Part shown: one piece after another, positions 29 to 54,240 of the stretch
Numbering within the stretch: the stretch's first letter is position 1
How the letters are laid out: every line of letters starts with the position of its first letter
Assembly (NCBI GenBank): GCA_963693365.1
Contig: CAVNZM010000005.1
Location: 806,001-870,000 of the forward strand
Reading direction: 5' to 3'
Source: Amoebidium appalachense
Lineage: Eukaryota; Protista; Ichthyosporea
DNA length: 64,000 bases
Made by a program: the position numbers and the translations under genes
The notes under the pieces: generated by a model
Databases searched by the model: none
What the model saw: the letters and a program-made list of their open reading frames with translations, nothing else
What the model was told of the DNA's origin: nothing

Positions 29-3000
29 ATGCCAACGAGTGTACACTGGGCACACACACGTGTGGAGTAGCTACGGGCACGTGCACCAACACGGCTGGCA
101 GCTTCAACTGTGGATGCAAGCAGGGCTTCCGCATCAACGGCACACAGTGTGCAGGTTTGTGCGTGTGTGGCTGCCTGTGTGTGTGTGTGTGTGTGTGTGT
201 GTGTGTGTGTGTGTGTGTGCGTGCGTGTGTGCGTGCGTGCGTGCGTGCGTGCGTGCGCGCGTGCGTGCGTGCGTGCGTGCGTGCGTGCGCGTGCGCGTGA
301 GTGTGAGTGCGCGTGTGCGCGCCCGCGCACGTGTGTGTGTGTGTTTTCGTAAGCGCACGTGTGTATGACACTGCTAGGTAAAAGGAGAAGGGTGGCACTA
401 GGTAGCCACATAGCTGTTTGGTTGCCACCCTATCCATCCATTCATTCAAGTAACCTGACTCTGACTCGCTCAGAATAGCACAGACAGTCTTTTGGATCCT
501 CCCCAGAACAAAACAAACACACCTACTGACATACCGAAATCTTTCGCCTCCCCCGTCCCCCCCCCCCCCCCCCCCCCGGACACGGACACACACACACACA
601 CACACACACACACACACACACACACACACACACACACACACACACACACACACACACACACACACACACACACACACACACACACACACACACACACACA
701 CACACACACACACACACACACACACACACACACACACAGACATCGACGAGTGTTCCGAGCACATGCACACGTGCTTCAATAGCACCACTGTGTGCAGCAA
801 TACCCCCGGCAGCTTCTTCTGTTCGTGCCTGTCTGGCTTCACTGGGCTGGTGCCAAACTGCACCGGTATCATCCCCCCCCCCCCCCCCCCCCTTCCCCCC
901 TTTTCTTCCCCTCCCCCCCTCAAACACACACACACACACCCTGCCTCATGCCTGTGCGACAGCTATACAAAAAGAAACACTTGCCCAAATTCAACTGCCC
1001 CCCCCCCTGTATTTGATCTCAGGATCCTCCTCCCCCCCTCCCCCTCCCCCCTCCCCCCCCCCCCCCATCTCTCCTGCCCTCATATACTCCTCGTCCATGC
1101 CTACCTCTTTGCCCCGGTTTCATATCTGACAGCCTTACATGGTTCATTTCGTCCCATCTACGTTTGAATACCTTGCTAGGACACTCAACTATCAGGAATG
1201 GCTTTTTAGGGCAGCGAGAGTTCATAAATACGTTGTGGAGCACAACAATTATCTTTCACAAAATTATTATTATTTTGGCTCACTTCTTTCTATGTGCAGA
1301 CATTGACGAGTGTGTTCTGCGCTCACACGGCTGTGACACTGTGGCCACGTGCAACAACACGGCTGGCAGCTGCACGTGCACGTGCAAGAGTGGGTACACC
1401 GGCGATGGCATAAACTGCACAGGTAATCGATCTATCCCCTCCCCCCCCCCCCCCCCCCCAAAAAAAAAAAAAAGAAAGAAAGAAAGAAAAAGAAAAAGAA
1501 AGAAAGAAAGAACCCCCCCTCCCCCCCCCTCCCCCCCCCCCCCCCTTCATGACGACTTATATCGGGAATATTCAACACAGTAACCGCACACCCCCCCCCC
1601 CCCCCCCCCCCAGACAAGGAAAAAAAAATAGAAAAGAATATGTCTGTGCACGCAACCATGTACCAGCACACACAGAGATGCACGTAAAGATGACCAATCC
1701 TCCCCCCCTCTACAGATGTTGACGAATGCACAAACCCCGACACGTGCCCCGTGCTCTCCACGTGCACAAACACCATCGGCAGCCACGGGTGCACCTGCAC
1801 ACCCGGATACACCATGGTGGATGGTGTGTGTGCGGATGTGGACGAGTGTGTGTTGAACACGGACACGTGCCATGAGGTTGCCACGTGCAAAAACACGGAA
1901 GGCAGCTACACGTGCACGTGCCCGAGGGGATACTTGGGTGATGGTCACTTCTGCACAGGTGAGTGGTGGCATCTTCTCTTCCGTATATGCTCAGTCACAT
2001 GTTATGAATGCTTTCTCTCCCATCCTCCAATACATTAAAGCTAGCACGCAAGCTGCCCCCACCCCACCCCACCCCCCTCCTACACCATAATGCCTAGCCG
2101 CCTGACATGGTTCAACAATACCATTTCCCCCTCCATTTAACACATTCATACCTTTCTCCCCCCCACCCTCCCCCCTCCCCCCTCCCCGCCCTTCTCCCTC
2201 AATGTGCGTGCAGACATGGACGAGTGTGCCAGCCCCACCCCCCGGTGTGATACCCGCAGCAACTGCACCAACACAATAGGCAGCTTCAAGTGCCCCTGTC
2301 TCCAAGGCTACACCATCCCTATAGACTCCACCGTCTGCACGGATGTGAACGAGTGTGCACTGGGCACACACACGTGCAGTGTGTTTGCCACGTGCAACAA
2401 CACGGACGGGTCGTTTGAGTGCACGTGCATCAACGGGTACACTGGTGTTGGTTCTGTGTGTAACGGTACAACCCCCCCCCCCCCCCCCCCCCCCAAAAAA
2501 AAAAAAAAAAAAAAAAAAAAGTCAAACATACATACACCCATACATAGGTGTCCAAGAGTCAGAAAGGCTAAAACGTTACCAGTCTATTCTTTTTTTCACG
2601 CTCCTTTGTGTCGCATACTGGCTTAATAGGGTGCAACCTAACTCTTCCCTGGTGTGTTTATATCGGTTCTATGCCCGACCGGCAATTTTGTATATTATAA
2701 AACGGGAGGTTGCCAAGCCCGGGCTAAACATGGGCCTACTTTGTCAAAAGCTTCACAGTTCTCTGCTCCTTGCATGCCTGAGTCCCCCCAACTCCCCACA
2801 CCAAAACTTCTTCCTTGGACCTCTCCGTCATAGAACGACTGAGATTATCATACTACTGCCAGCCTCTTTACTCACCCAATACCCCCGCAGACATTGATGA
2901 GTGCCTTATCAACACCACCACGTGTGGTAACAATGCATGGTGCCACAACACAAACGGGAGCTATTCGTGCCTGTGCGATAACGGATACACGATGGGCCCC

Positions 3001-54240: not shown

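Follow-up and report, generated by a model that had tools for sequence, protein, structure and literature searches.

The receptor gene and its modules

The window, as we call the whole 64,000-nucleotide stretch of Amoebidium appalachense DNA analysed here, carries on its plus strand a receptor tyrosine kinase (RTK) gene that, in an exon model fixed by coordinates, comprises 97 exons with 15,069 coding nt (about 5,020 codons) between positions 29 and 54240. All 97 acceptors are AG, 95 of the 96 donors are GT, the remaining one (31688) being GC, and 84 of the 96 introns lie in phase 1. The exon chain reaches the 5' edge of the window without a start, as an earlier note on this DNA had described, and closes with a stop codon at its 3' end. 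From the 5' side, 54 EGF modules are followed by a hevein-like exon, one further EGF, two Thr/Pro-rich exons and three more EGFs, and then by 30 Cys-rich repeat exons, ten hexapeptide exons, a transmembrane (TM) helix, the kinase and an acidic tail (Table 1). Apart from one +1 frameshift in exon 24, nothing interrupts the reading frame; because Pfam EGF matches carry on in the shifted frame past the C9 run, the shift is likely an assembly slip.

Table 1. Features of the RTK gene, in window coordinates.
Feature	Positions	Strand
Exons 1-41: 54 tandem EGF modules, mostly of the calcium-binding type; gene start upstream of the window	29..24917	+
C9 homopolymer in exon 24 with +1 frameshift, likely assembly error	13985..13993	+
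Exon 42: eight-Cys hevein-like module resembling the amphioxus PGRP3 CBD; Ser/Met/Asp at the Trp53/Trp55/His62 positions	25603..25770	+
Exon 43: EGF 55	26136..26264	+
Exons 44-45: Thr/Pro-rich mucin-like stalk; weak donor at 27840, read-through stop near 27981	26807..27840	+
Exons 46-48: EGF 56-58	28638..29551	+
Exons 49-78: Cys-rich array of about 1,300 aa with 170 Cys; TNFR-like half-modules alternating with a longer Cys module	30015..44910	+
Exons 79-84 and start of exon 85: hexapeptide block 1, about 39 in-register hexads (about 13 coils)	45407..47950	+
Exon 85: loop of about 100 aa inside the beta-helix; polybasic KRRR (48079-48090) and a Gly/basic stretch; candidate cleavage site for a convertase	47951..48267	+
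Exons 86-88: hexapeptide block 2, about 27 hexads (about 9 coils), membrane-adjacent	48667..49858	+
Exon 89: single TM helix (from 50253), then a basic stop-transfer stretch	50188..50394	+
Exons 90-95: tyrosine kinase domain; GxGxx motif, activation-loop YY, PMRWMPPE	50768..52994	+
Exons 96-97: C-terminal tail, acidic, with a YVN motif among its six tyrosines; stop codon at 54238-54240	53235..54240	+

Inspection of the exons gave 58 EGF modules, in agreement with the earlier estimate of about 58. A six-Cys EGF pattern matches 55 of them, 53 begin with [DN][EQ]C, and 43 of the 58 match a strict calcium-binding consensus ([DN]x[DN][EQ]C ... Cx[DN]xxGx[YF]xC). Applied to the window, the six-Cys pattern produced 55 plus-strand matches below 30 kb and none above, with three junk matches on the minus strand. 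Pfam placed EGF families in 46 of 49 pieces, EGF_CA among them, and this result and the strict pattern together identify the array as one of calcium-binding EGFs. For the Cys-rich exons, Pfam TNFR_c6 was matched by 13 of 30 at E<0.05 and by 2 of 30 above the gathering score, in an exon-wise scan that splits the modules. TB, LNR and Sema families were not reported in the Pfam exon scans of the gene. The ectodomain contains 96 N-glycosylation sequons. Two details of these regions may be recorded here: exon 64 (36957-37031) is a TNFR-like half-module lacking any cysteine, with phase and length kept, and the start of exon 44 (26807-26930) is a non-repetitive, possibly helical segment ahead of the Thr runs that has no Pfam match.

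The hevein module proposed in the earlier note stood as a fold pattern and not as a chitin-binding one. All eight Cys of exon 42 align with the hevein-like domain of amphioxus BbtPGRP3 (PDB 4Z8I; E=1.2e-5), and the match to Pfam Chitin_bind_1 reaches E=0.54 only. According to the available text of PMC4610682, chitin binding by BbtPGRP3 needs Trp53 and Trp55 and is abolished by W53A/W55A. Of the BbtPGRP3 site residues Ser51, Trp53, Trp55 and His62, exon 42 keeps the Ser, and since the other three positions are occupied by Ser, Met and Asp, chitin binding by this module is unlikely; we rejected that function for want of the site's aromatic residues.

At the other end of the chain, one 19-residue window reaches a mean hydropathy of 2.4, the next best being 1.3, which points to one TM helix, on the N-terminal side of the kinase. 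Pfam PK_Tyr_Ser-Thr matches four of the six kinase exons, and the catalytic motifs of tyrosine kinases are intact, including PxRW, the activation-loop YY and PMRWMPPE; the TM helix and intact tyrosine kinase of the earlier reading were thereby confirmed, and on these motifs we predict with high confidence that the kinase is active. The YVN of the tail we take to be a Grb2-type SH2 motif. A Grb2/GRAP-type adaptor is given for Creolimax and Sphaeroforma in the available text of Suga et al. 2014 (PMC4342544).

Other features lie within or beside the gene. Intron 95 contains a tRNA-Val(AAC) on the same strand (53034-53109, +), intron 18 a tandem repeat with many copies of a unit of about 40 nt (about 9620-10330), and intron 26 a compound (CA)n/(ACC)n repeat of about 1 kb (about 15330-16370). 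Introns throughout the gene are (CA)n-rich near acceptors and carry poly-C near donors. A second intron-rich tyrosine kinase gene occupies about 58670-63720 on the minus strand, tail to tail with the RTK gene, its 5' part lying beyond the window.

The hexapeptide stalk and its family

The two hexapeptide blocks together hold 63 or more canonical hexads; in the 63 tallied, position i is always I/L/V/F/M, position i+1 is Gly in 41 and position i+4 is V/A/S/T in 56. The tandem [LIVMA]-x3-[ASCVTN]-x hexads by which the available text of PMC538250 defines the left-handed beta-helix (LbH) are thus present in the stalk, and the LbH members covered there are homotrimeric in their active form. Pfam Hexapep recognises six of the ten exons, four of them above the gathering score, and the best PDB sequence matches are LpxA/LpxD (E 2.8e-9). 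An AlphaFold model of exon 86, built on an 11-row alignment, is a confident triangular beta-helix with 18-residue coils (pLDDT 90.7). Compared by VIA-align, it scores Z 13 with an rmsd of 11.6 A against LbH proteins, its hand being opposite to theirs, and Z 10.8 with an rmsd of 2.0 A against the right-handed bactofilin; Foldseek returned no match to this model at E<=0.001. The model bears out the geometry of the coils but not a left hand, and we read the opposite hand as a mirror artefact of the 11-row alignment. That the stalk is a triangular beta-helix seems to us very likely, and that it is left-handed is likely. A word-based homologue search with exon 86 found two proteins with Hexapep/LpxD-type Pfam domains, without a kinase, and a metagenome scan found nine loci that match short runs of hexapeptides at 33-39% identity. 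We considered a catalytic function of the helix and rejected it, as the helix is predicted to be extracellular and no catalytic domains were detected.

Relatives of the receptor are to be found among other ichthyosporeans. The best matches of the kinase exon are Ichthyophonus Ihof_evm12s4 (EGF + TNFR + tyrosine kinase, 52%) and Creolimax CFRG0219T1 (hexapeptide + tyrosine kinase), and the nearest named kinases are those of Creolimax, Sphaeroforma, Ichthyophonus and Amoebidium; in a midpoint-rooted tree of search matches the kinase falls together with those of ichthyosporean RTKs. The sequence of CFRG0219T1 aligns collinearly with the C-terminal part of the window protein (31% identity over 804 columns). 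An exhaustive HMMER search with CFRG0219T1 listed the best 150 of 146,597 matches. Of the 154 proteins then compared, five have runs of at least 12 hexads, namely the two non-kinase Hexapep proteins of the exon 86 search, CFRG0219T1, CFRG1497T1 and KNC85203. A word-based search with residues 290-480 of CFRG0219T1, among proteins of 519-1,652 aa, found that protein alone. A kinase tree of 36 rows, composed of the window kinase, the 34 top BLAST matches among the compared proteins and KNC85203, places the window, CFRG0219T1, CFRG1497T1, KNC85203 and the partial KNC76175 on one side of a branch with support of 98/88; it is midpoint-rooted, and KNC85203 has a very long branch.

The closest counterpart in architecture is Creolimax fragrantissima CFRG1497T1, a EukProt gene model of 5,710 aa that begins with a signal-like sequence and, like the window gene, has an EGF array, TNFR-like repeats, a hexapeptide helix with an Arg-Arg loop, a TM helix and a tyrosine kinase. 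Its kinase is 41-42% identical to that of the window and belongs to the same clade, and the longer Cys module is common to both (43% over 53 aa). Its EGFs (61 six-Cys pattern matches, 76 D/N-x-C starts) are however of other repeat types, its TNFR-like part extends over about 200 aa against about 1,300, no hevein or mucin module is seen in its sequence, and it bears no functional name in EukProt. Creolimax CFRG0219T1 and Sphaeroforma KNC85203 and KNC76175 likewise combine hexapeptide helix, TM helix and tyrosine kinase, with the Arg-Arg loop in the first two, but their ectodomains are short or partial, KNC76175 itself being partial. In KNC85203 a signal-like start and a single EGF precede a P/S/T stalk, Hexapep, TM helix and kinase. 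The CFRG0219T1 model begins inside the hexapeptide helix without a signal-like sequence and may be truncated. Ichthyophonus Ihof_evm12s4, an EGF + TNFR RTK without the hexapeptide stalk, has a membrane-proximal segment (about 1000-1075) with a GSV motif, which to our mind recalls SEA-domain autoproteolysis.

In all four family members with a readable helix, the Arg-Arg loop breaks the helix 179-246 residues (23-27 hexads) before the TM segment. The basic site of the loop is of the RxRR type in both Creolimax proteins and dibasic in Sphaeroforma, and the K-R-R-R of the window departs from the strict furin consensus R-x-K/R-R. For convertase cleavage at this loop we see the balance as level, and we give the same even odds to a receptor homotrimer assembled through the beta-helix. 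The helix might instead be a stiff monomeric spacer of about 10 nm, the loop an uncut insertion and signalling of the ordinary ligand-induced dimer kind. LbH domains that do not form homotrimers exist (eIF2B-epsilon, dynactin p25/p27, budworm antifreeze protein) and count for a monomeric spacer, as do the hand of the exon 86 model and the variation of loop length and sequence among the four members. In all four, nevertheless, the loop has kept its Arg-Arg motif and lies about equally far from the membrane, and the nearest sequences to the stalk are the helices of LpxA/LpxD, which are trimeric; we consider the monomeric spacer unlikely.

Probable continuity of the transcript

Splicing was read from assembled contigs themselves, in three runs of one sample, none of which is on record as RNA, their nature as RNA being a program's guess. 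Of the words of 44700-54300, fractions of 0.34 and 0.28 occur in two of the three runs, values near the coding share there of about 0.35. Over 44360-46580, a 6,813-nt contig of run X1 covers exons 77-82 without mismatch and in contiguous record coordinates, with four GT..AG joints in what is an assembled contig rather than a single molecule. Among these is the joint between the TNFR-like and hexapeptide parts, 44910/45407, one of the junctions that the earlier note had put forward for checking and which is thus spliced in a public contig; it is unbridged in run X2. At its loose ends the contig matches the last letters of exon 76 and the first of exon 83, and cover of the introns is absent save for short repeat scraps. 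By arithmetic of lengths rather than by aligned sequence, its upstream part (2,991 nt) corresponds to exons 54-76 (2,988 nt) and its downstream part (3,143 nt) to exons 83-97 (2,728 nt) followed by a 3' UTR of about 415 nt; judged by length, the contig would span exon 54 to the 3' UTR.

Upstream of this contig, the locus might alternatively be divided between two genes or two transcripts, one for a secreted EGF-hevein-mucin protein that ends near 27981 and the other for a separate EGF3-TNFR-beta-helix RTK of about 2,450 aa. Intron 45 (27840/28638) speaks for such a division with weak splice sites, whose scores (donor 2.8, acceptor 1.5) are within background (95th percentiles 5.8 and 8.0), and with an in-frame read-through from exon 45 to a stop near 27981; the inferred 5' end of the spliced contig at exon 53/54 points the same way, and the EGF/hevein/mucin junctions are predictions of the gene model. 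Yet exon 46 starts in phase 0, as the exon 45 donor requires, intron 45 is 797 nt long with 55% AT against 66% past the true stop, a scan of introns 41-49 for a signal-peptide-like ATG turned up none at the cut-off applied, and in CFRG1497T1 the same core is attached to a giant EGF array. We regard two genes as quite improbable, and the EGF half as probably part of the same chain as the TNFR-like, hexapeptide and kinase part. The single RTK chain of about 5,000 aa that the earlier note proposed was borne out in its modules and phase-compatible exons, whereas the join of the EGF/hevein/mucin part to the rest is one that we infer. A decaying or truncated 5' half, in which the exon 24 frameshift is real and only the 3' part functional, is hardly credible, given that the +1 shift in the C9 run is the sole lesion in 97 exons and sits in a homopolymer, within a homopolymer-rich window, between intact EGF modules on both sides.

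Proposed mechanism and comparison with known systems

On balance we lean towards a single-pass RTK whose EGF/mucin/TNFR-like adhesion or sensing rod stands on a beta-helix stalk, probably trimerising and maybe cut at the Arg-rich loop. As a type I receptor it would project from the cell a calcium-stiffened EGF rod, a glycosylated stalk and a Cys-rich array; an EGF module measures about 2.9 nm, which would make the EGF rod about 170 nm long. The distal EGF/mucin/TNFR-like rod is likely the adhesion or sensing arm, and the hexapeptide stalk probably bundles three receptor chains; it may be cut at the Arg-rich loop, the two halves then remaining stacked as a single helix and held together. If the distal rod were engaged or pulled, the outer part would be rearranged or shed, upon which the pre-clustered kinases would trans-phosphorylate one another at the activation-loop YY and create phosphotyrosine docking sites for SH2 domains in the tail. 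Since helix, TM segment and kinase are constant in the hexapeptide-stalk family and the distal arrays vary freely, the helix would be the transducing element. A bolder version, which we offer tentatively and with more doubt than trust, is that these proteins form an undescribed ichthyosporean family of constitutively trimeric, convertase-cleaved RTKs, in which the left-handed hexapeptide beta-helix of metabolic acyltransferases was recruited as an extracellular trimerising stalk, its cut and stacked halves serving, beneath an EGF/TNFR rod of more than 150 nm, as a switch for release or force in the manner of Notch.

RTKs are taught as dimer-activated, and hexapeptide beta-helices as cytosolic enzyme scaffolds; here such a helix would lie directly outside the membrane in a conserved RTK clade of animal relatives. 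With this clade one could ask in a simple way if trimers formed in advance are a possible wiring for tyrosine kinases, and if a beta-helix can act as a cleaved latch that force or ligand releases; its short members, Sphaeroforma KNC85203 and Creolimax CFRG0219, would allow both questions to be put without a protein of 5,000 residues. By itself, the giant EGF/TNFR rod is less of a surprise, such arrays being already present in the ichthyosporean RTKs described in the available text of Suga et al. 2014 (PMC4342544).

The architecture had been called apparently unprecedented in the earlier note, a description that did not hold. CFRG1497T1 unites EGF array, TNFR-like repeats, hexapeptide helix, TM helix and tyrosine kinase in one model, and the text of Suga et al. 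2014 already labels long EGF and EGF+TNFR ichthyosporean RTKs. Many known proteins of the same architecture, which the note had named as evidence against its reading, were not what we found either, but one full match and three partial ones. The accessible text of PMC4342544 reports lineage-specific ichthyosporean RTKs with EGF, TNFR, LRR, I1, I3, CLECT and TSP1 domains, and its supplement text contains a run of roughly 75-80 EGF labels ahead of a TyrKc label as well as EGF+TNFR+TyrKc runs; the entry with some 75-80 EGFs is possibly CFRG1497T1. Because such arrays are labelled there, giant EGF/TNFR RTKs as such are already known in ichthyosporeans. The term 'Hexapep' does not occur in PMC4342544, PMC5876402, PMC8662651 or PMC5560861 as far as their main texts are available, the identifiers CFRG0217-0220 were not found in the accessible content of three supplements of PMC4739763, and a full-text search, to whose coverage most subscription journals are external, found no literature linking hexapeptide or beta-helix domains to holozoan RTKs. 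Apparently, then, an ichthyosporean RTK clade with a membrane-proximal hexapeptide beta-helix has so far gone undescribed, and the window gene is a giant member of it.

The IchRTK1-20 families (PMC4342544) and Ichthyophonus Ihof_evm12s4 resemble the window gene as lineage-specific RTKs with EGF and TNFR arrays, but for IchRTK1-20 the wording of the main text and of both supplements, figures aside, has no hexapeptide or LbH label. The stalk of the window shares the [LIV]-G-x-x-[VAST]-x hexads with the LbH superfamily (LpxA, LpxD, GlmU, gamma-carbonic anhydrase). With the rods of the fibrillin/Notch/MEGF type the receptor has a long calcium-binding EGF array in common, and with the convertase-cleaved Notch, insulin receptor and Met a polybasic site near the membrane, although none of these is known to have a hexapeptide stalk. 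Unlike the helix of the LbH enzymes, the window stalk is predicted to be extracellular, reaches about 22 coils and forms part of a receptor, and acyltransferase domains were not detected around it.
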